Assembly: GCA_016210295.1 (NCBI GenBank)
Contig: JACQUM010000018.1
Coordinates: 1-35,565, forward strand
DNA from: Chloroflexota bacterium
Lineage (GTDB): Bacteria; Chloroflexota; Dehalococcoidia; UBA6926; JACQUM01
Length of the DNA stretch: 35,565 nucleotides
Reading direction: 5' to 3'
Shown: piece after piece, positions 2,091 through 20,337 of the stretch
Layout of the letters: every line of letters starts with the position of its first letter
Position numbering within the stretch: position 1 is the first letter of the stretch
Made by a program: the position numbers and the translations under genes
Notes under the pieces: model-generated
What the model saw: only the letters and a program-made list of their open reading frames with translations
The model's database searches: none
What the model was told of the DNA's origin: nothing

Positions 2091-3266
2091 CTAGGGTCCC
2101 CCAAAGACGGTGCTCTCCGGATGGTAGCCGGACCAGCCATACCACTCGGAGATAAAGGAGGGGACGAACTTGAGGTCCTCTGTCGCCAAGGAGTCTGAGA
2201 CCGCGTGGCCCAGGAGATCCCAGCGGGAGCCCGTCTCCCCGTCCACCAACTCAACACCCTGGGATAGCGTATTATTGGAAAACTTCAAGACCCGGCCCCC
2301 CACCGCCCGCGAATAGGCCAGCCCTGTACGGGCGCGACGGTCGTACACCACCACAATGGGCTCTCCGGCCAGGGTGTCGTTGACCACGCCCAAGGCCTCC
2401 TCCAGCTTCTCCAGTGGATAGGCGCGGAACTGACCCCGCACCTCAACCCCCACCACCAGCGTGTTGGCGGGCAGCCGACTGTCGCCAAAGCGCGCCTCGT
2501 CCTGCTGGAAGATCCCGATTCTGACGGGACGATAGCGATCCTGGAAGGGAGTATTGGGGGAGAGGACCAGAGACGCGGGGTGCTGCTTTTTCCACTGGCC
2601 CCAGGTCATCTGGGGCAGCGGGATCATAGCCAAGCGGGTCCCCCCCAGGGGCCCGCGCAGCGCCAGACCATCCAGGTGCGTCCACATCGTGCCCGTCTCC
2701 CGGTCCACCATGGTCAGCACCCCCTGCAAGAGCCCAAACACCTCGAAGGTGAGGTGGCGGCCTCCCACCAGGGGGTCGAAGCCGACCCCCGAGCTGCACT
2801 TGATTCAATAGGTGATGAGCAATGGCCGACCGGCCGCTGCATCGTTGACGATGTGGTGGTAGCGCACCATCCGGACCGGATAGGCCCGGGCCTCCCCTGC
2901 CCACTCCAGGCCCAAGACCAGATCATCGTCGGGCAAGAAGGTGGCCTCTTGGGCCTTCAGGAAGGCCGGGTCATCCAGCGGCACAAAGGCGGTGGTCCGG
3001 CGATAGGTCACATCCTCTTCCCCGGTGGTGGGCGGGACAGGTGAGGGGGAGCTTGGCGCAGGAAGGGACGCTTCTGGGGGAGCCGAGCTTAGCTCTGTTG
3101 TTGGCAGTGGCGTGACCCCAGGCGTTGGACCGGGAGCCAGCGCCGCAGAGGGCTCAGCCTCGCGCGCGGGCTCGAGGTCGCCGCTAGAGGTGCAGCCCGA
3201 TAGCGAGACCAGCCCCAAGATGGCCACCAAGAGAAGCGCTCGCCGGAAGCGTAGACTGGGGGACAT
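2091..3266 (-). CDS. DUF3179-family lipoprotein, candidate selenoprotein with an in-frame UGA at 2807-2805
   Basis: ORFs 2805..3323 and 2091..2768 are in the same frame, separated only by one TGA. The joined sequence reads ...AYPVRMVRYHHIVNDAAAGRPLLITY-[UGA]-IKCSSGVGFDPLVGGRHLTFEVFGLL. This matches the DUF3179 core ...VTYCPLCGSG..., with the UGA at the first Cys. The start is ATG 3266 (RBS GGAGGCAAGGGG) and gives the signal peptide MSPSLRFRRALLLVAILGLVSLSGC with a lipobox. Confidence 0.6.
2771..2790 (-). promoter_or_regulatory. SECIS-like hairpin downstream of the in-frame UGA
   Basis: The minus strand reads GGGGGUCG-GCUU-CGACCCCC, a perfect 8-bp stem with a 4-nt loop that starts with G. The stem begins 14 nt after the UGA and the loop 22 nt after it. 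Confidence 0.5.
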
Positions 3267-3429
3267 CGATATCCCCTTGCCTCCATCCCGTCCTCTTTCT
3301 TCATGCCTTGCGGGCGTCATCACTGTTACCCTTGTCCACGCTCTTGTCCGGTGAACTCCAGTGCGGAAATGCCTTCTCGAGATTCCCCATTTCCACCGGT
3401 CCCGGCCTAGTTCAACGGGACAAAGGGTA

Positions 3430-4481: not shown

Positions 4482-5117
4482 ATGGCTCGGAGCGTTCACG
4501 TGGTAACAGCGCCTGCTCAGGGCAAGGAAGCCACCCGAGAGCGCATCCTGGACGCGGCCACCGAGGTCTTCGCCGAGAAGGGCTACCACGGCGCCGCTGT
4601 AGACGACATCGTCCGGCTCTCCGGCACCTCCAAGGGCGCCATCTACTTCCACTTTCCCAGCAAGAGGGAGATATTCTTTGCCCTCGTCGGTCGCCTCGCC
4701 GGTCTCCTGGCCTCCTCCACCGAAGAGGCCATCGCTTCCCGCCATCGAGGGGTGGAGAGGGTGGACGCCGCGCTCCAAGCCGTCTTTCGCATCTTCTCGA
4801 AGCATCGCCGTTTGGCCAAGATCCTCCTTGTGGGAGGCGTCGGCCTCGGCCCCGTCTTCGACGAGCGCCTGCTTGCCCTTCACGCTCGCTTCGCTCAGAC
4901 GATCCAAAGTCGTCTGAACGCCGCCGTTGGCGACGGCTCCCTTCCGCCGATAGACACGGAGATGGTGGCCTACGCCTGGCTGGGAGCCGTCAACGAGGTC
5001 ATCGTCCGCTGGCTCTACACGGGCCAGCCTGACCCTCTGGAGAGGGCGCTGCCTGCTCTGCGCTCCATGCTTCTTCGCAGCGTTGGCGCAACCGTGAGGG
5101 AGGAGGCCCCGGCCTGA
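4482..5117 (+). CDS. TetR/AcrR family transcriptional regulator
   Basis: The N-terminal helix-turn-helix reads RERILDAATEVFAEKGYHGAAVDDIVRLSGTSKGAIYFHFPSKREIF. An RBS GGAGGG lies upstream. Confidence 0.9.
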   Translation: MARSVHVVTAPAQGKEATRERILDAATEVFAEKGYHGAAVDDIVRLSGTSKGAIYFHFPSKREIFFALVGRLAGLLASSTEEAIASRHRGVERVDAALQAVFRIFSKHRRLAKILLVGGVGLGPVFDERLLALHARFAQTIQSRLNAAVGDGSLPPIDTEMVAYAWLGAVNEVIVRWLYTGQPDPLERALPALRSMLLRSVGATVREEAPA

Positions 5118-6577
5118 TGGCCCGCTCTTATCGCGACCTCCGCGAGTTCGTCGCTTTCCTGGAGTCCCGGGGAGAGCTCACGCGCATCAAGGCCGCGGTC
5201 TCCTGGGACCTGGAGATCTCCCAGATCTGCGATCGGGTGGTGAAGCAGAGCGGCCCTGCGCTCCTCTTCGAGAACGTTTCGGGTTACAAGACCCCCGTCC
5301 TCATCAACACCTTCGGCACGGCGCGGCGCATGGCCTGGGCCCTGGGCGTGGACGACCTGGACGAGCTTGGGGAGCGGGTGCGGAAGCTCCTCCACATGGT
5401 CCAAGGTCCGCCCCAGGGGCTGTTGAACAAGCTCCGCGCCCTCGCCGACCTGGCGAAGATGGCCCGCATCGCCCCGCAGCGGGTAGACGACGCCCCCTGT
5501 CAGGAGGTCGTTCTGAAGGGGGACGAGGTCGACCTGTTCAAGCTCCCCATCATCAAGTGCTGGCCCCAGGACGCCGGACGTTACATCACCCTCCCCCTCG
5601 TCATCACGCGCGACCCGGAGTCGGGCGTCTACAACCTGGGCATGTACCGGATGCAGGTCTTCGACAAGAGCACGACGGGGATGCACTGGCAGACCCACAA
5701 GGTGGGGACCCACCACCAGCGCCTCACCGAGGAGAAGGGAATGGAGCGCATGGAGGTGGCGGTGGCCTTGGGCGGCGACCCGGCCACTGTCTGGACGGGC
5801 TCCGCTCCCCTCCCCCCTGACGTGAGCGAGTACCTGGTGGCGGGCTTCCTTCGAGAAAGGCCTGTCGAGGTGGTGAAGGGCGTCACCGTGGACTTGGAGG
5901 TCCCCGCCCAGGCGGAGATCGTCCTGGAGGGGTACGTGGACGTGAAGGAGCGGCGAGTGGAGGGGCCCTTCGGCGACCACACGGGCTACTACTCGCTGGC
6001 GGAGGAGTACCCCGTCTTCCACGTCACCGCCGTGACGCACCGCCGCGACGCCATCTACCCCACTATCATCGTGGGCCGGCCTCCTCAGGAGGACTACTGG
6101 ATGGGCAAGGCGACGGAGCGCCTCTTCCTGCCCATCATCCAGATGGTCGTTCCGGAGGTGGCGGACATGAACATGCCCGCCGAGGGCGTGTTCCACAACC
6201 TGGTCGTCGTCTCTATCAAGAAGGAGTTTCCCGGCCACGCCCAGAAGGTGGCCCACGCCCTGTGGGGGCTGGGCCTGATGATGCTGGCCAAGGCCATCGT
6301 CGTGGTGGACCACAACGTCAACGTCCACGATCTCTCCGAGGTGGCCTGGCGGGTGACCAACAACATCGACGCCCGCCGGGACGTCTTCTTCGCCGAGGGG
6401 CCGGTGGACGACCTGGACCACGCGGGCTCGGCGCCCCGTTTCGCCAGCAAGCTGGGCATCGATGCGACGCGGAAGGGCAGGGGAGAGTTGGGCGGGCGGG
6501 AGTGGCCGCCGGACATCGTCATGGCGCCGGAGATGGTGGCGCTGGTGGAGCGCCGCTGGAAGGAGTACGGGCTGTGA
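5117..6577 (+). CDS. ubiD: UbiD-family (prenyl-FMN-dependent) aromatic decarboxylase
   Basis: The N-terminus is typical of UbiD (YRDLREFVAFLESRGELTRIK...LLFENV.GY), and the protein is 486 aa. Its ATG shares a base with the tetR TGA. Confidence 0.9.
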   Translation: MARSYRDLREFVAFLESRGELTRIKAAVSWDLEISQICDRVVKQSGPALLFENVSGYKTPVLINTFGTARRMAWALGVDDLDELGERVRKLLHMVQGPPQGLLNKLRALADLAKMARIAPQRVDDAPCQEVVLKGDEVDLFKLPIIKCWPQDAGRYITLPLVITRDPESGVYNLGMYRMQVFDKSTTGMHWQTHKVGTHHQRLTEEKGMERMEVAVALGGDPATVWTGSAPLPPDVSEYLVAGFLRERPVEVVKGVTVDLEVPAQAEIVLEGYVDVKERRVEGPFGDHTGYYSLAEEYPVFHVTAVTHRRDAIYPTIIVGRPPQEDYWMGKATERLFLPIIQMVVPEVADMNMPAEGVFHNLVVVSIKKEFPGHAQKVAHALWGLGLMMLAKAIVVVDHNVNVHDLSEVAWRVTNNIDARRDVFFAEGPVDDLDHAGSAPRFASKLGIDATRKGRGELGGREWPPDIVMAPEMVALVERRWKEYGL

Positions 6578-7464
6578 GCGCCTCCGCGTCTTCTGCGGTT
6601 CGGGGGGGCCCCCTGGGCCGCATCGGCCTTCTGCTCGACGCCATCCGCTTTGAGCACACCGTCTTCGCGCTGCCCTTCGCCTATCTGGGCATGGTCCTCG
6701 CCGCCCGGGGCCTCCCCACCTGGTGGCAGTTCCTGTGGATCACCGTGGCGATGGTGGGGGCCCGGACCTTGGCCATGTCCATGAACCGCCTCATCGACTG
6801 GCACCAGGACGCCCTCAACCCACGCACCGCCAACCGCGCCCTCCCGCGTGGCCTGCTGAAGCCCATCGAGATGGGGGCCCTGGCCGCCGGGAGCGTGGCG
6901 GTCTTCCTCTTCGCCGCCGCGATGCTCAACACCCTGGCCCTGGTGCTGGCGCCCTTCGCCGCCGCCTACGTTGTCCTCTACTCCTACACCAAGCGCTTCA
7001 CCTGGACCAGCCACTTCTGGCTGGGCTGGGCGGACGGCATCGCCCCGGCGGGAGGGTGGATCGGGGTGGCGGGAAGCCTCTCCTGGGAGGCGGTCCTCCT
7101 TGCTTTCGCCGTGGCGACCTGGGTGGCGGGCTTCGACCTCATCTACGCCTGTATGGACCGGGAGTTCGACATCGCCCACGGTATTCACTCCATCGCGGTG
7201 AAATGGGGGACCGCCGCCGCTCTTCGCTGGTCGAAGGCGATGCACCTCCTCACCTCGGCCTCCCTGCTGGCCGTGGGGCCCTGGCTGGGGCTGGGGTGGC
7301 CCTACTATATCGGCTGGGCTCTGGCGACGGGCCTCCTCGTGTACGAGCAGCGGCTGGTCAGTCCCGGCGATCTCTCCAAGGTGAACGTGGCCTTCTTCAA
7401 CGTGAACGGCTACATCGCGATAATCGTCTTTAGCTTCACCTTTGGTGCGGTATTCGTTCGATAG
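6574..7464 (+). CDS. ubiA: UbiA-family aromatic polyprenyltransferase (4-hydroxybenzoate-type or MqnP-like)
   Basis: It has NRLIDWHQD (NxxxDxxxD) and DREFD motifs and multiple transmembrane helices. GTG 6574 overlaps the ubiD TGA as GTGA. The ORF-track extension back to 6262 lies inside ubiD. Confidence 0.85.
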   Translation: MSASASSAVRGGPLGRIGLLLDAIRFEHTVFALPFAYLGMVLAARGLPTWWQFLWITVAMVGARTLAMSMNRLIDWHQDALNPRTANRALPRGLLKPIEMGALAAGSVAVFLFAAAMLNTLALVLAPFAAAYVVLYSYTKRFTWTSHFWLGWADGIAPAGGWIGVAGSLSWEAVLLAFAVATWVAGFDLIYACMDREFDIAHGIHSIAVKWGTAAALRWSKAMHLLTSASLLAVGPWLGLGWPYYIGWALATGLLVYEQRLVSPGDLSKVNVAFFNVNGYIAIIVFSFTFGAVFVR

Positions 7465-7474
7465 GAGGTACTGA

Positions 7475-8074
7475 ATGGACCCGGTCGTCGTCGGTATCTC
7501 GGGGGGGAGCGGGGCGGTGCTTGCCAAGCTAGCCATTGACGAACTCATGGCTCGCAACATACCCGTGTGGGCTACCTGCTCCAGCGCGGGCCGTCAGGTC
7601 TGGCACCATGAGATGGGAGAGCCCTTCTCGCGCGCCCTGTCCGAGTGGGGAGACAACCCCCTGTTCACCTATTACAACATCAACGACATCGGCGCGCCCC
7701 TGGCCAGCGGCAGCGCGCCCACGACGGGGATGCTCGTCATGCCCTGCAGCATGGCGACGGTGGCCGCCATCGCCCACGGCCTGGCCGACAACCTCCTCCG
7801 CCGCGCCGCCGACGTCACGTTGAAGGAGCGGCGCCGCCTGATCATCGTACCGCGGGAGACCCCGTTCTCTTCCATACACCTGGAGAACCTGTTGAAGCTC
7901 TCCCAGGCGGGGGTCGTGGTCCTCCCGCCGGCACCGGCCTTCTACCTGCGCCCCAAGTCGGTGGAAGACATCGCCCGCTACATCGCCGCGAAGGCCCTCT
8001 CCGCCCTTGGCCTGCCGGGAACCCTGTCCCAAGAATTTCGCTATCAGGGAAGAGAAGAAAGGAGCAGTCCATGA
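7475..8074 (+). CDS. ubiX: UbiX flavin prenyltransferase
   Basis: It has VVGISGGSG, MLVMPCSMATVAAIAHGLADNLLRRAADVTLKERRRLIIVPRETP, and an AGGAGG RBS. Confidence 0.9.
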   Translation: MDPVVVGISGGSGAVLAKLAIDELMARNIPVWATCSSAGRQVWHHEMGEPFSRALSEWGDNPLFTYYNINDIGAPLASGSAPTTGMLVMPCSMATVAAIAHGLADNLLRRAADVTLKERRRLIIVPRETPFSSIHLENLLKLSQAGVVVLPPAPAFYLRPKSVEDIARYIAAKALSALGLPGTLSQEFRYQGREERSSP

Positions 8075-9869: not shown

Positions 9870-10634
9870 ATGCCTCGATGGCTGCGCCTTCCTACTGGCA
9901 CCAACATCGTTCTGGCGGGCTTGGCCCTTCTCCTGCTGTGGCAGGTAGGGGCCTGGCTTGTGAATTCCTCTATTCTCCCCGGCCCAGGCGGCGTCCTCCT
10001 CGCCTTCCCGTCGGAGCTGCGCCGCGGGCTGATGGGCCACGTGATGATCAGCGCTTACCGGGTGGGGGTGAGTATTCTGCTCGCCGGGGCGGTCGCGGCG
10101 CCGTTGGGGATGGTCATGGGCCTGAACCGCACGCTCTACACCTTCACTGCGCCCCTGGTGTACGTGAGCTATCCCATCCCCAAGATCGTCTTCTTACCTC
10201 TCTTTCTCCTCTTCTTCGGCCTGGGGGACATGCCCAAGATCGCCATGATTTTCCTCATCCTCTTTTTCCAGGTGCTTTTGCTGGTGCGGGACGCAGCCCA
10301 AAACGTGCGGGCCGAGCTGGTCTTTTCCGTGCGCTCCCTGGGAGCGCACGGATGGCAGCTCCTTCGTTACGTCTACTTCCCGGCGTCGCTTCCCGCGCTT
10401 CTCTCCGCCCTGCGGGTGAGCACCGGCACGGCGATAGCCGTCCTTTTCTTCGTGGAGAGCTTCGGCACCTCTTCGGGACTGGGCTACTACATCCTGGTGG
10501 AGTCCTGGGGCCGCTTGGATTACACGAGGATGTATGTTGGCGTGCTGAGCATGGCGCTGCTCGGCCTGGCGACCTACTACCTTCTCGACTTCCTGGAGGC
10601 CCGTCTCTGCCGGTGGACGCGGGTGGGAGGCTAA
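9870..10634 (+). CDS. ABC importer permease (NitT/TauT family, BPD-type)
   Basis: It has about six transmembrane helices and an EAA-like loop (VRDAAQNVRAELVFSVRSLGA). Confidence 0.9.
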   Translation: MPRWLRLPTGTNIVLAGLALLLLWQVGAWLVNSSILPGPGGVLLAFPSELRRGLMGHVMISAYRVGVSILLAGAVAAPLGMVMGLNRTLYTFTAPLVYVSYPIPKIVFLPLFLLFFGLGDMPKIAMIFLILFFQVLLLVRDAAQNVRAELVFSVRSLGAHGWQLLRYVYFPASLPALLSALRVSTGTAIAVLFFVESFGTSSGLGYYILVESWGRLDYTRMYVGVLSMALLGLATYYLLDFLEARLCRWTRVGG

Positions 10635-10687
10635 GGGGAAGAGAAAAAGAAGGAGCGCGTGGAGAGCGTTCTATACGGACAAGGAAG

Positions 10688-10730
10688 AAATAGGGAGGCC
10701 GCCCGCCTATGGCGGGCGGCCTCCCTATTT
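10688..10730. terminator. Bidirectional intrinsic terminator between convergent genes
   Basis: AAATAGGGAGGCCGCCCGCC-tat-GGCGGGCGGCCTCCCTATTT forms a perfect stem of about 20 bp, flanked by A and T runs. Confidence 0.75.
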
Positions 10731-10759
10731 GCGAGGGAAACTGCTCCCCTTCTTACCAC

Positions 10760-11722
10760 TTACCAGGAAGGATGCCTGTCGTTGGCGGGGTTGTCGGTGA
10801 CCTGGACGAGCTTTTGCAGGAGATCCTCCCCCGCTCCCGTGGGGACGAAGTAGACATTCCAATTGCCGTCTTTATCGGTGGAGAAGAGGACATAGCTACC
10901 GGCTGCCTGCCCCAAATCGCCCCAGACCGGCTGAATGGCGTTGAAGGAGGAGCTCTTGACGACCGGCTGCAGTCGGCGGCCATCGGTCTCCACCTCGTAG
11001 ACGGCGGCTTTGCCGTCGGTCTGGACCTCGAGGATGAGACGCGGTCGAACCTTCGGTGTCATCATTGAGGGGCGCCAGTCGCTTGCTGGCCGCTCGACGA
11101 TGACGCGCTCATCCTTGCCGATGATCATCGAGGCGAGGTCCAGCTCCTCTAAAGAGTCGCCCGTGGCCCAGGTGACGCGGCTGACGTCTGACTGGATGAT
11201 GGGAGTGAGGTTGAAGTTCTGGTTATCGGTGATCTGCTCCAGGTTGCTGCCGTCGGTGTTGACCGCGTAGATTTGGGGCCGGTCGTTGTTTTTCCCGGTG
11301 ACGGTCAGGGAGAGGAGCAGACGCGCGCCTTCGGCGTACCAGCTCGGACTACCAGCGACGCCCGCTTCCTTTGTGATGTTCTGCGGGTTGGAGCCGTCGA
11401 CGCCCATGATCCAGACGTCGGCCTTGCCGCCGCGGTCGCTCACGAAGGCCACCTTCGTCTTGTCGGGAGACATGGCGGGTTCGGTATCGGAGGCGGGGTT
11501 GTTGGTGAGGTTCTGGCGGCCCGTCCTGTCCGACCTGATGAAGTAGACCTCCCAGTTGCCGTCTCGGTCGGACTCGAAGACGATGGGGACAGCCGTGGCA
11601 GAGCCACCGCCGCCGCCGGGCGGCGCACCTTCGCCCCCGGGTGTGGTTGTGCCGCCTCCGCCACAGCCCGCAATGCCCAAAGTCAGGGCCGCCAGGGCAA
11701 AGCCGACCAGTAACCCCTTCAC
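10760..11722 (-). CDS. PD40/TolB-like beta-propeller lipoprotein
   Basis: GTG start with an AAGGAGGGAG RBS. The signal peptide ends in the lipobox GIAGC. Repeated motifs (DRDGNWEVY..., SPD.TKVAFVSDRGG..D.W) are PD40 repeats. Confidence 0.8.
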   Translation of the reverse strand: MKGLLVGFALAALTLGIAGCGGGGTTTPGGEGAPPGGGGGSATAVPIVFESDRDGNWEVYFIRSDRTGRQNLTNNPASDTEPAMSPDKTKVAFVSDRGGKADVWIMGVDGSNPQNITKEAGVAGSPSWYAEGARLLLSLTVTGKNNDRPQIYAVNTDGSNLEQITDNQNFNLTPIIQSDVSRVTWATGDSLEELDLASMIIGKDERVIVERPASDWRPSMMTPKVRPRLILEVQTDGKAAVYEVETDGRRLQPVVKSSSFNAIQPVWGDLGQAAGSYVLFSTDKDGNWNVYFVPTGAGEDLLQKLVQVTDNPANDRHPSW

Positions 11723-17674: not shown

Positions 17675-19033
17675 GTGCGCGACCGCATCGAGGAGGCCCT
17701 TCGCGGCCACAACGCCGACTACATCGAGTTGCGGATAGAGGAGATCGAGGGGACTCATCTCTCCTTCCGGAACACCGAGCTGGAAGACATCGGCCGCAGC
17801 CGGAGCCTCGGCGGGTGTGCCCGAGCCCTCGTCAAAGGGGGCTGGGGCTTCGTCTCCTTTACCTCCCTGGAGGGCCTGAGGGAGAAGGTGGCCCTGGCGG
17901 TGAGCCAGGCCCGCATGGTGGGCGGCAAGAGACTCAAGCTGGCCGCCGGGCCTCTTATCGATGAAGAGGTCCCCCCCACGCTGCCGAAAGACCCGCGAAC
18001 GGTCCCTCTGGCGGAGAAGGTGGCGCTGCTGCGCGAGTATACCGATGCCCTCTGGAGTGTCCCGCACATCCAGAGCACCGGTCTCGCCTACGGCGATCGC
18101 TACCGGCGTGTCATCTTCGCCAACGGGGAGGGCAGCTACATCGTCCAGGCGCGTGTGGACGTGAACTTTCGCCCATGGGCTGCCGCCCGAGACGGCGGGG
18201 ACGTGCAGCAATACGGGGTCAGCCTTGGCAGCCTGGGCGACTACGGGCTGGTGGAGGGAAAGCACAAGGAGGTCCGTGGTGTCGCCGAGAAGGCCGTGGA
18301 GTTGCTCTCGGCTCCACGGCTTCATGGCGGCGAATACGTGGTCATCTGCGACCCCATCCTGGCGGGCGTCTTCGCCCACGAGGCCTTCGGCCACCTCTCG
18401 GAGTCAGACTTCGTCTATGAGAACGAGCGGGTCCAGGAGCTGATGGTCCTGGGCCGGCGCTTCGGCGGACCGCATTTGAACATCGTCGACGGGGCCGCCA
18501 TCCCGGGCCTGCGTGGCTCCTACAAGTACGACGACGAGGGGATGCCCGCCACCCGCACGGACCTCATCCGCGAGGGCGTGTTGGTGGGACGCCTCCACTC
18601 TCGTGAGACGGCGGCCAAGATGCAGGAGCCCCCCACTGGGAACGCCAGGGCGATCGACTTCCATTTTCATCCTATCGTTCGGATGACCAACACGTTCATC
18701 GAGCCCGGGACGGCTTCTGTGGAAGACATCTTCGCCGAGGTGAAGGACGGGGTCTACGCCAAGAACTGGTACGGCGGGATGACGAGCATGGAGATGTTCA
18801 CCTTTTCCGCGGGAGAGGCCTATCGGATCCGAAACGGCCGTGTGGCGGAGCTCCTTCGGCCCGTCGTCCTCTCGGGGAACGTCTTCACGACTCTGGAGAA
18901 CGTGGACGCCGTCGCCAACGACCTGGACTTCAACCAGGGCGGAGGCTGCGGGAAAGGCGGCCAGGCGCCTCTCCCTGTCTCCAACGGCAGCCCGCACATT
19001 CGCATCCGCAGCTGCCTCGTGGGAGGCGCGTGA
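17675..19033 (+). CDS. tldD: TldD metalloprotease (peptidase U62)
   Basis: It has the HEAFGHLSESD motif and a C-terminal GGCGKGGQ...PHIRI. GTG start after a GGAG RBS. Confidence 0.9.
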   Translation: MRDRIEEALRGHNADYIELRIEEIEGTHLSFRNTELEDIGRSRSLGGCARALVKGGWGFVSFTSLEGLREKVALAVSQARMVGGKRLKLAAGPLIDEEVPPTLPKDPRTVPLAEKVALLREYTDALWSVPHIQSTGLAYGDRYRRVIFANGEGSYIVQARVDVNFRPWAAARDGGDVQQYGVSLGSLGDYGLVEGKHKEVRGVAEKAVELLSAPRLHGGEYVVICDPILAGVFAHEAFGHLSESDFVYENERVQELMVLGRRFGGPHLNIVDGAAIPGLRGSYKYDDEGMPATRTDLIREGVLVGRLHSRETAAKMQEPPTGNARAIDFHFHPIVRMTNTFIEPGTASVEDIFAEVKDGVYAKNWYGGMTSMEMFTFSAGEAYRIRNGRVAELLRPVVLSGNVFTTLENVDAVANDLDFNQGGGCGKGGQAPLPVSNGSPHIRIRSCLVGGA

Positions 19034-20337
19034 TGGACCGCGTCCTGGCCTTTGCGGCGAAGGCTACAAGGGAGGCGGAGGTTCAAGCGGTGGAGAGCCG
19101 CTTCACCACGGTCGGCTTCGAGACCGACCGTCTCAAAGAGGTGCAGACCCGCGAAGGGTGGACCATGGGCGTCCGGCTCCTGGTGGACGGGCGCGTGGGC
19201 CTGTCCTCCACCAACGATCCCGCTGAGGAGGAGGGAGTCGTTCGCCGCGCCCTGGAGCTGGCGCCCTTCGGGCCGGAGGTAAACTTCGAGCTCCCCTCTC
19301 CCCAGGAGTACCCCGAGGTGCCGACCTATGATCCGGCCATCGAGGGGGTGACTGCCAAGAAGATGGTGGAGTTCTTCCGCTCTCTTCTCGCCGACTTGAA
19401 AGCGGCGTACCGAGACGTTCTCTTCGAGGGGGGCGTCACCGCCGGGACCACCTTGCTCTCCTTGAAGAATAGTCGCGGCCTGGACCTGAGCTACCGAAAG
19501 AGCACCTACGCCTTCTGGGTGAGCGGCACGCGAGTCCAGGGAATGGACATGCTTTTTGTTGGAGACCGACAGCGCTCGACCGGCCCTGTGTGGGACTACA
19601 CGCGGGTGAAGGCCTCCGTTCTGCGCCAGCTGGACCTGGCGAAGAACCTTGTTCCCGCCCCAGCGGGACGCGTCCCTGTGCTCTTCACTTCCCGCGGCTT
19701 CGCAGGCACTCTCCTTGGCCCACTTCTCGCTGCCTTGAACGGCCGCACCGTCGTCCAGGGGGCCTCCCCTCTGGCGGGCCGCCTCGACGAGCAGGCCTTC
19801 GACGCCAGCTTGACTCTTCTGGACGATCCGACAATCCCCTTGAAGCCGCCTGCACGTCCCTGGGACGAAGAAGGGACACCCAGCCGGCCGCTACCTCTGG
19901 TCGAGAAGGGAGTGGTCCGCAACTTCCTGTACGATCTCCACACGGCGGCCCGAGCCGGAGCGAGGAGCACGGGCAGCGCCTCGGGCGGGATTGGCAGCAT
20001 GCCGGGGCCTTCTGCCTCCTACCTCCAAGTCCTGCCCGGCCAGGTGCCTTTCGACACGATGGTAGCGAACGTGCAAGACGGGCTCCTTGTGGAGGAGCTG
20101 ATTGGAGCAGGGCAGGGCAACACTTTGGGCGGCGAGATCGCGGGGAACGTGCTCCTCGGTTATCGGATCCAGAACGGGAGCGTCACAGGCCGCGTCAAGG
20201 ACACGGTGATTCACTGCAATCTCTACCATGTCCTGCGGGACATCGGCGCCATTGGTCAAGAGGCAGAGGAAGTAGGTGGCTTCCTTTCTGTTCCGCCAAT
20301 ACTGTGCCTGGACGTCTCCGTGGCACGGAAGGAGTAA
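19030..20337 (+). CDS. pmbA: PmbA/TldE (peptidase U62 partner subunit)
   Basis: The U62 family pattern is present but lacks the HExxxH motif. Its start overlaps the tldD stop (GTGATG). Confidence 0.9.
   Translation: MMDRVLAFAAKATREAEVQAVESRFTTVGFETDRLKEVQTREGWTMGVRLLVDGRVGLSSTNDPAEEEGVVRRALELAPFGPEVNFELPSPQEYPEVPTYDPAIEGVTAKKMVEFFRSLLADLKAAYRDVLFEGGVTAGTTLLSLKNSRGLDLSYRKSTYAFWVSGTRVQGMDMLFVGDRQRSTGPVWDYTRVKASVLRQLDLAKNLVPAPAGRVPVLFTSRGFAGTLLGPLLAALNGRTVVQGASPLAGRLDEQAFDASLTLLDDPTIPLKPPARPWDEEGTPSRPLPLVEKGVVRNFLYDLHTAARAGARSTGSASGGIGSMPGPSASYLQVLPGQVPFDTMVANVQDGLLVEELIGAGQGNTLGGEIAGNVLLGYRIQNGSVTGRVKDTVIHCNLYHVLRDIGAIGQEAEEVGGFLSVPPILCLDVSVARKE

Follow-up and report, generated by a model that had tools for sequence, protein, structure and literature searches.

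Does an in-frame TGA within a gene of the DUF3179 family separate two proteins, or is it read as an amino acid within one? The question is raised by the minus strand of contig JACQUM010000018.1 (assembly GCA_016210295.1; Chloroflexota bacterium, Dehalococcoidia), of which positions 1 to 35,565 were analysed; this whole stretch of 35,565 nucleotides is called the window here. Two minus-strand open reading frames (ORFs), 2805..3323 and 2091..2768, lie in one frame that is interrupted solely by a TGA at 2807-2805. The results described below make it very probable that this UGA is decoded as selenocysteine (Sec) and that the gene encodes a full-length DUF3179 selenoprotein.

Gene structure and conservation of the UGA codon

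The minus-strand codons around the TGA read CTC ATC ACC TAT TGA ATC AAG TGC AGC TCG GGG GTC GGC TTC GAC CCC CTG GTG, and the joined peptide at this point is ...LLITY(UGA)IKCSSGVGFDP.... The joined product has 391 amino acids and extends from the ATG at 3266 to a TAG at 2093-2091. With Cys placed at the UGA, it matched Pfam PF11376 (DUF3179) with an E value of 1e-64 and 219.1 bits (cutoff 27) over profile positions 7-292 of 292, and no NCBIfam model matched it. In the corrected numbering, counted from the ATG at 3266, Sec occupies position 154 and the Cys paired with it position 157. The N-terminus, MSPSLRFRRALLLVAILGLVSLSG followed by Cys25, has the sequence of a lipoprotein signal, with a positive n-region, a hydrophobic core and the lipobox LSGC, which fits the pattern [LVI][ASTVI][GAS]C. 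Lipobox-like motifs are located N-terminal to the DUF3179 domain in most relatives as well. The two ORFs are one gene and not two. The first-pass annotation of this DNA had described two collinear ORFs split by a single TGA and a joined protein that is a complete DUF3179 lipoprotein, and both descriptions held. The features of the locus are as follows.

2091..3266, minus strand: complete predicted selenoprotein gene, ATG 3266-3264, Sec-UGA 2807-2805, stop TAG 2093-2091; PF11376; halves collinear in 43 of 43 loci
3192..3266, minus strand: lipoprotein signal peptide, residues 1-25, lipobox L-S-G-C (Cys25), read from the sequence
2982..3191, minus strand: low-complexity linker rich in Pro, Ser, Thr and Ala, residues ~26-95, from the anchor to the domain, read from the sequence; the equivalent part of a modelled homologue has a predicted local distance difference test (pLDDT) score <50
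2589..2981, minus strand: module 1, residues ~96-226, with His137-His138, Sec154 and Cys157; internal duplication, structural model and local Rieske-like fold matches
2853..2858, minus strand: codons CAC CAC of His137-His138; family conservation and secondary structure of the model
2805..2807, minus strand: in-frame UGA, predicted Sec154, aligned to the first Cys of CxxC; TGA in 42 of 42 Chloroflexota orthologues
2796..2798, minus strand: codon TGC of Cys157, predicted partner of Sec in U-x-x-C; Cys in 43 of 43 loci
2771..2790, minus strand: hairpin of the selenocysteine insertion sequence (SECIS) type, 5' arm 2790-2783 GGGGGUCG, loop 2782-2779 GCUU, 3' arm 2778-2771 CGACCCCC; folding, covariation and synonymous-site constraint
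2094..2483, minus strand: module 2, residues ~262-391, without His-His and CxxC (...EEALGVVND...VVVYDRRA...); halves 37% identical, E value 4e-22

For comparison of the site, 45 loci were fetched from species-representative genomes, nearly all of them metagenome-assembled genomes (MAGs) of Dehalococcoidia, SAR202 and other Chloroflexota, together with the cultured Ca. Lucifugimonas marina JH545. Local tblastn was carried out with 85 residues flanking the site, which is covered by 42 Chloroflexota loci. The aligned codon was TGA in 42 out of 42, at 52-82% identity to the window over the 85 residues. The sole locus from outside Chloroflexota (L043, from the actinobacterial Ca. Poriferisodalaceae) has TGC in the context SY-C-PL-C-NS and no hairpin, and the Cys-type homologue P0113 also has TGC at the site, without the hairpin. 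When 49 full-length homologues were aligned, the column of the UGA contained Cys in 48 and Ser in one, and the second Cys was invariant. The UGA is thus positioned on the first Cys of the CxxC motif of the family, as the first-pass annotation had placed it, and the codon check in relatives that was then advised returned TGA, not TGC or TGT.

Both gene halves are collinear in all 43 loci in which they were compared. Cys157 is retained in every one of these, encoded by TGC in 35 and by TGT in 8. The position of the first in-frame start past the UGA varies across the loci from codon 1 to codon 32; an in-frame GTG or ATG is present 12-13 codons past the UGA in 29 of the 43 loci, and is elsewhere or missing in 14. 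Retention of Cys157 with TGC/TGT variation, together with the scattered position of the first start, indicates that the stretch right after the UGA is translated. UGA also serves as the terminator of 10 of the 27 Pfam-supported genes of the window with complete domain coverage, and of 16 of the 43 DUF3179 orthologues.

Two Sec-type DUF3179 paralogues are carried by some genomes, namely L006 and L036 on the same contig (CBDFLS010000002.1) and L038 and L040 in the same MAG. The latter two have each lost one His of the pair (HE and PH), and their UxxC spacers are U-PT-C and U-QK-C.

The hairpin downstream of the UGA

The window hairpin, GGGGGUCG-GCUU-CGACCCCC at 2790-2771, starts 14 nucleotides past the UGA. 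It consists of an 8-bp stem and a 4-nucleotide loop located 22 nucleotides past the UGA, has an energy of -16.1 kcal/mol when folded alone, and codes for Gly-Val-Gly-Phe-Asp-Pro. The published model of bacterial SECIS elements (PMC13188914, Fig. 2 legend) has a loop of 3-9 nucleotides, a stem of 4-16 bp, a G in the first two loop positions, a UGA-to-loop distance of 16-37 nucleotides and a minimum free energy of <= -7.5 kcal/mol. When compared with these criteria as published, the window hairpin agrees with every one of them. The G-initiated loop and its distance within the 16-37 nucleotide range had both been noted at first pass; the hairpin fits the model and also covaries.

The consensus of the hairpin across 42 sequences is GGGGUCG-GGUU-CGACCCC, and its seven core pairs are formed in nearly all of them. 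Compensatory double changes were found at three of the seven core pairs: C-G is replaced by U-A in six sequences, and G-C by A-U once each at two other pairs. The covariation score was reached by none of 500 column shuffles, and when the 3' arm was shifted by 1-3 columns, pairing fell from 90% to 38-69%. Some of the compensations in the stem change the encoded amino acid (Asp to Asn, Val to Ile). The hairpin is absent at this site in Cys-type homologues. The expectation that TGA and hairpin would not coincide by chance is borne out, as the two recur together at every one of the 42 orthologous loci compared in other species.

Codon choice within the hairpin was also compared with that in the rest of the same genes. 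All 42 sequences use GGG for Gly at +6, as against 21% of Gly codons elsewhere. Only GTC or GTT is used for Val at +7, while GTG and GTA together make up 48% of Val codons elsewhere. At +11, whenever Pro is encoded (40 of 42 sequences) the codon is CCC or CCT, while CCG and CCA account for 54% of Pro codons elsewhere. In the loop, by contrast with the stem, the wobble base is unconstrained (G, U or C). Synonymous sites in the hairpin are restricted to pairing bases, and the DUF3179 hairpin is a clean natural case of an RNA structure dictating both protein sequence and codon choice.

A permissive Rfam scan of the hairpin region returned noise only, with no SECIS family among the matches. The hairpin was also considered as a transcription terminator and rejected, as it is without a U-tract and was not flagged by the terminator scan.

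Proposed selenocysteine decoding and rival explanations

In the proposed mechanism, the hairpin at 2790-2771 would be bound by SelB carrying Sec-tRNA(Sec) as the ribosome arrives at the UGA. After insertion of Sec, translation would run on to the TAG at 2093-2091. Cys25 and the flexible linker of ~70 residues would then tether the 391-residue lipoprotein to the cytoplasmic membrane, on its outer side.

To locate the decoding machinery, the window and the flanks of the relatives were searched. In the window, ARAGORN and Rfam gave tRNA-Glu only, and Pfam scans of 27 ORFs gave housekeeping genes and no sel gene. In the 10-kb flanks of the relatives, ARAGORN run on 45 loci found no tRNA-Sec, a search by which the 8/4 form may be missed; the tRNA-Sec of Chloroflexi is reported to be of this unusual 8/4 type (PMC5389517), which may account for the result. 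Selenoproteins have been reported in Chloroflexi (PMC1794560). When the flanks were searched by tblastn with approximate E. coli SelA, SelB and SelD queries, a single selD was obtained, at L025. A match at L032 was a false lead, being TypA/BipA.

The selD gene of L025 (6604-7650, minus strand) is located 2.4 kb from the DUF3179 gene and matched TIGR00476 with 386 bits (cutoff 125). In it, the position of the catalytic Cys is taken by an in-frame TGA (...LAHCAG-U-AAKFSP...), as is also the case for selD at L049 (~9950-10981, plus strand). The 120 nearest homologues of L025 SelD are all called as N-terminally truncated ORFs of 303-328 amino acids. This truncation is the signature also seen with DUF3179, and the Sec-type SelD of the lineage seems to be systematically mis-annotated. 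A UGA-containing selD, which encodes one of these 120 homologues, and a UGA-containing DUF3179 gene (...FLITY-U-IKCSSGVGFDP...) are present together on the ENA contig ERZ26166491:contig_1 (2,399,274 bp). The occurrence of UGA at the redox Cys of two selenoprotein families in one genome would be hard to explain without a Sec system.

Several observations weigh against the decoding of this UGA as Sec or against what is proposed for the protein. Neither in the 35.6-kb window nor in ~800 kb of relatives' flanks were selA, selB or tRNA-Sec found. The window loop GCUU belongs to a minority, as GGUU or GUUU/GUUA/GGUA, the commoner SECIS pattern of G followed by G or U, is present in 40 of 42 sequences (GGUU in 28 of the 42 relatives). 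The hairpin coincides with the conserved peptide GVGFDP, and its conservation is in part protein-driven. P0002, the only full-length close relative (56% identity; L046, ENA ERZ24794648 NODE_701722, 1475 bp, coverage ~3x), is encoded with TCA (Ser) where the others have TGA, and the hairpin, GGGGUCGGAUUCGACCCC, is still present; the TCA reflects either a miscalled base in this thinly covered contig or a recent replacement of Sec by Ser. Extra interruptions are found in a few relatives: a 1-nucleotide deletion in the G-run of the hairpin (GGGG for GGGGG) causes a frameshift in L036 (~10403-10440), L025 and L037 are interrupted in the N-terminal part, and L040 and L042 in the C-terminal part. These are probably long-read homopolymer errors or decaying paralogues. 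The functional proposal made in the next section leans on weak fold matches (Foldseek E values of 0.03-0.1) with no sequence-level support.

The first two of these observations are what would be expected if the UGA were read through, independently of any SECIS, by a near-cognate tRNA (Trp, Cys or Arg), with the hairpin merely slowing the ribosome and no selenium involved. Such read-through is nevertheless improbable, because the UGA falls exactly on a Cys of CxxC, in a family that already figures in lists of selenoproteins, and because the hairpin conforms to the SECIS model in its dimensions, its distance from the UGA and the G of its loop. A lineage selD with its own active-site UGA, once on the same contig, would be sensible only in a cell that decodes Sec. 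It is quite unlikely that translation stops at the UGA to give a 153-residue lipoprotein fragment, with the GTG at 2768 as the start of a second polypeptide, which is how the gene is publicly annotated. Gene callers do give only the 225-residue C-terminal ORF, here and in >100 relatives, and the start codon 12-13 codons past the UGA in 29 loci would suit such an arrangement. However, the 11-12 codons between the UGA and the GTG are conserved as protein, including Cys157; the first start is elsewhere or absent in the remaining 14 loci; and the GTG at 2768 is simply a conserved Val codon. The break would also cut module 1 and part the His pair from Cys157, and in Cys-type homologues the protein is a single chain.

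If the gene were a pseudogene, or the sequence or assembly in error, a nonsense mutation would have arisen by chance or base 2806 would have been miscalled. The codon is indeed one base away from TGC or TGT, and clear errors or decay occur in some long-read relatives, such as the frameshift in L036. This explanation is very improbable and is effectively refuted, as TGA is found in 42 of 42 independent species-level genomes of many studies with both flanks conserved as protein, a recurrence that chance mutation could not produce. Genome-wide reassignment of UGA (codes 4 or 25, to Trp or Gly) has nothing specific in its favour, and its probability is negligible; it is refuted by the stop-codon usage given above, in the window genes and in the DUF3179 orthologues alike. 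Because the UGA is conserved, the stretch downstream of it is translated and UGA is an ordinary stop in this DNA, pseudogene, error and reassigned code are disposed of and a split gene is unlikely. Decoding of the UGA as selenocysteine is the explanation that we favour.

Protein architecture, annotation and comparison with known systems

The halves of the DUF3179 domain are homologous (37% identity, E value 4e-22) and represent a tandem duplication of a module of ~125 residues; module 2 alone matched the N-terminal half of the Pfam DUF3179 profile with an E value of 7e-18. The His pair and U/CxxC are retained in module 1 only, and module 2 has ...AL... and ...YDRRA... in their place. His137 is present in 49 and His138 in 48 of the 49 full-length homologues, and the pair is found in 41 of 43 Sec-type loci. 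Among the family representatives there are also multi-copy giants, for example P0361, with 1587 amino acids and six matched stretches. At L009 (9248-10213, plus strand) the region before the UGA is longer (322 amino acids), and an extra segment, ...VAYYEAFNDGDIETISAILTPDVVY..., looks like an N-terminally fused SnoaL/NTF2-like domain.

The AlphaFold2 model used to examine the fold is that of P0002, the closest full-length relative, and not of the window protein. The mean pLDDT of its domain is 83.7, with most blocks >90. From the secondary structure of this model, the His pair lies at the start and U/CxxC at the end of one beta-hairpin, and the two motifs should be neighbours. Foldseek of the model against the PDB gave no global match. 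The best local matches were Rieske ferredoxins, Rieske domains and NirD-like domains, with E values of only 0.03-0.1, probabilities of 0.96-1.0 and target-normalised TM-scores of 0.45-0.56 over ~90-110 columns. No Pfam match to the Rieske families was obtained at E <= 10, hhalign against a BphF sequence gave a probability of 0.2%, and the PDB profile search was empty. Since the sequence methods are unsupportive and the ligand pattern differs, the module is termed possibly Rieske-like and not a Rieske protein.

The body of the protein would thus be a tandem duplicate of an all-beta module, of which only the first copy would have an active centre, formed by Sec154-x-x-Cys157 and His137-His138. 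Our best guess, made with low confidence, is that this centre serves in extracytoplasmic metal binding or in selenol/thiol redox chemistry. No neighbouring gene is common to more than 6 of the 43 loci, and the surroundings give no operon clue to function. A bolder version, in which DUF3179 is an extracytoplasmic metal centre derived from the Rieske fold with Sec as a direct ligand of the metal (His-His/Sec/Cys), is doubtful. If it were true, an abundant ocean clade would depend on selenium for a metal or redox function at the cell surface, and the dependence would be clade-wide because every Dehalococcoidia/SAR202 orthologue examined is Sec-type; the near-invariant GGGGUCG-GGUU-CGACCCC would then be a class-wide, sequence-specific SECIS that fixed the peptide GVGFDP. 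A centre of His-His and UxxC on a duplicated all-beta module may serve as a first structural handle on DUF3179 and a start for assigning its function.

To the first-pass annotation DUF3179 was not known as a listed selenoprotein family, and the novelty implied by this was not upheld. DUF3179 is tabulated as a UxxC/T selenoprotein family in two reviews (PMC9312934, 2022; PMC13188914, 2026). Both cite as the source Zhang & Gladyshev 2007 (PMC1976440), in which deltaproteobacterial symbionts were studied, and Chloroflexi or Chloroflexota are named in neither review. The NCBI name 'DUF3179 domain-containing (seleno)protein' is already attached to some members, Armatimonadota entries among them. 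As the family is on published lists, current knowledge is not overturned, and the window gene is a new, mis-annotated member, apparently with its whole clade, of a known selenoprotein family.

When the joined sequence was used as a protein query, >100 nearest homologues were obtained at 50-66% identity; almost all of these are fragments of ~225 amino acids that cover only the C-terminal 57% of the query, which suggests the same interruption in these relatives. In the DUF3179 family as a whole there are 8,758 clusters at 50% identity (E <= 1e-3), and of the best 150 only a minority are Sec-type fragments. As a whole, the Dehalococcoidia/SAR202 clade appears to have the Sec type and to be widely mis-called as fragments of ~225 amino acids. 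A corrected annotation is the main gain, as only the C-terminal fragment is held in the public record and in >100 related protein clusters. Because DUF3179 and SelD are both truncated in gene calls, the selenoproteomes of Dehalococcoidia/SAR202 are under-called. The conservation of a predicted cell-surface selenoprotein throughout this clade, which is ubiquitous in the sea and in groundwater, suggests that selenium is needed. Such a need is directly testable, since Ca. Lucifugimonas marina (L029, with ...LVTY-U-ILCHSGVGFDP... at the site), one of the carriers, has been cultured.

The remaining content of the window was also recorded. At 41-95 on the minus strand, at a locus that continues beyond the start of the window, there are 3.7 copies of a perfect 15-nucleotide tandem repeat, GCCGCCGCCGATGTG. 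Read on the minus strand, it gives the beginning of a short ORF rich in Gly and His (MMGWGGGG(HIGGG)x3SSDNWDDE...), which immediately follows the ABC exporter gene (106..~1900) and could encode a metal-binding or secreted peptide. A compact set of TetR, UbiD, UbiA and UbiX genes occupies 4482-8074 (plus strand), just upstream of htpX and the DUF3179 gene; UbiD, UbiA and UbiX are a prenyl-FMN-dependent decarboxylase, a prenyltransferase and a flavin prenyltransferase, UbiA and UbiX being identified by inspection of the translated ORFs. A tandem TldD/PmbA metallopeptidase pair with a 4-nucleotide ORF overlap (19030-19033), followed by a HEAT-repeat protein, is located at 17675-20337 (plus strand) and is ordinary content.

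Compared with the DUF3179 selenoproteins already listed, the window protein belongs to the same Pfam family, has the predicted Sec at the first position of U-x-x-C (TY-U-IK-C-SSG) and is encoded with a SECIS-type hairpin after the UGA. It differs in coming from a Chloroflexota MAG, in a clade of which all examined members are Sec-type, and in being represented in the public record by a fragment of 225 amino acids. Cys-type DUF3179 proteins (P0113, P0118 and the Armatimonadota entries) share the two modules, the N-terminal signal or anchor and the invariant motifs AYP...HH..ND...TY-C-x-x-C...G, at 31-41% identity. They differ in having TGC and no hairpin, and in the sequence after CxxC, which is N-T-G-I-x-Y-D as against S-S-G-V-G-F-D-P in the Sec clade; the peptide that follows UxxC in the Sec clade is shaped by the RNA stem. 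Sec-containing SelD, with U at the Cys17 position, is likewise mis-called as truncated and occurs in the same lineage, once on the same contig. It is another protein, and its only relevance here is as a sign of UGA decoding as Sec in the lineage.

The best local structural matches are Rieske [2Fe-2S] domains (5bok, 2qpz, 3gce) and the cluster-less NirD-like domains (3c0d, 4aiv). As in Rieske domains, two His and two Cys/Sec residues of the window protein are predicted to be placed on adjacent loops, and His138 and Sec154 are separated by 15 residues. The Rieske motif is CxH-x15-17-CxxH, with a spacing similar to that of the window protein; the ligand pattern differs, being HH-x15-U-x-x-C and not CxH...CxxH. 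At the RNA level, the hairpin resembles SECIS elements of the E. coli fdhF and Moorella fdhA type (bSECISearch consensus) in forming a stem-loop within the coding sequence just past the UGA, with a spacing of 22 nucleotides and a small apical loop that begins with G. In fdhF the apical loop is GGUC, of which G and U touch SelB. The window element differs from this type in its short, perfect stem of 7-8 bp, which lacks both a bulged U and a long lower stem, and in its loop, GCUU. The DUF3179 element, the binding of which by SelB is predicted, also differs in being nearly invariant in sequence throughout a class.

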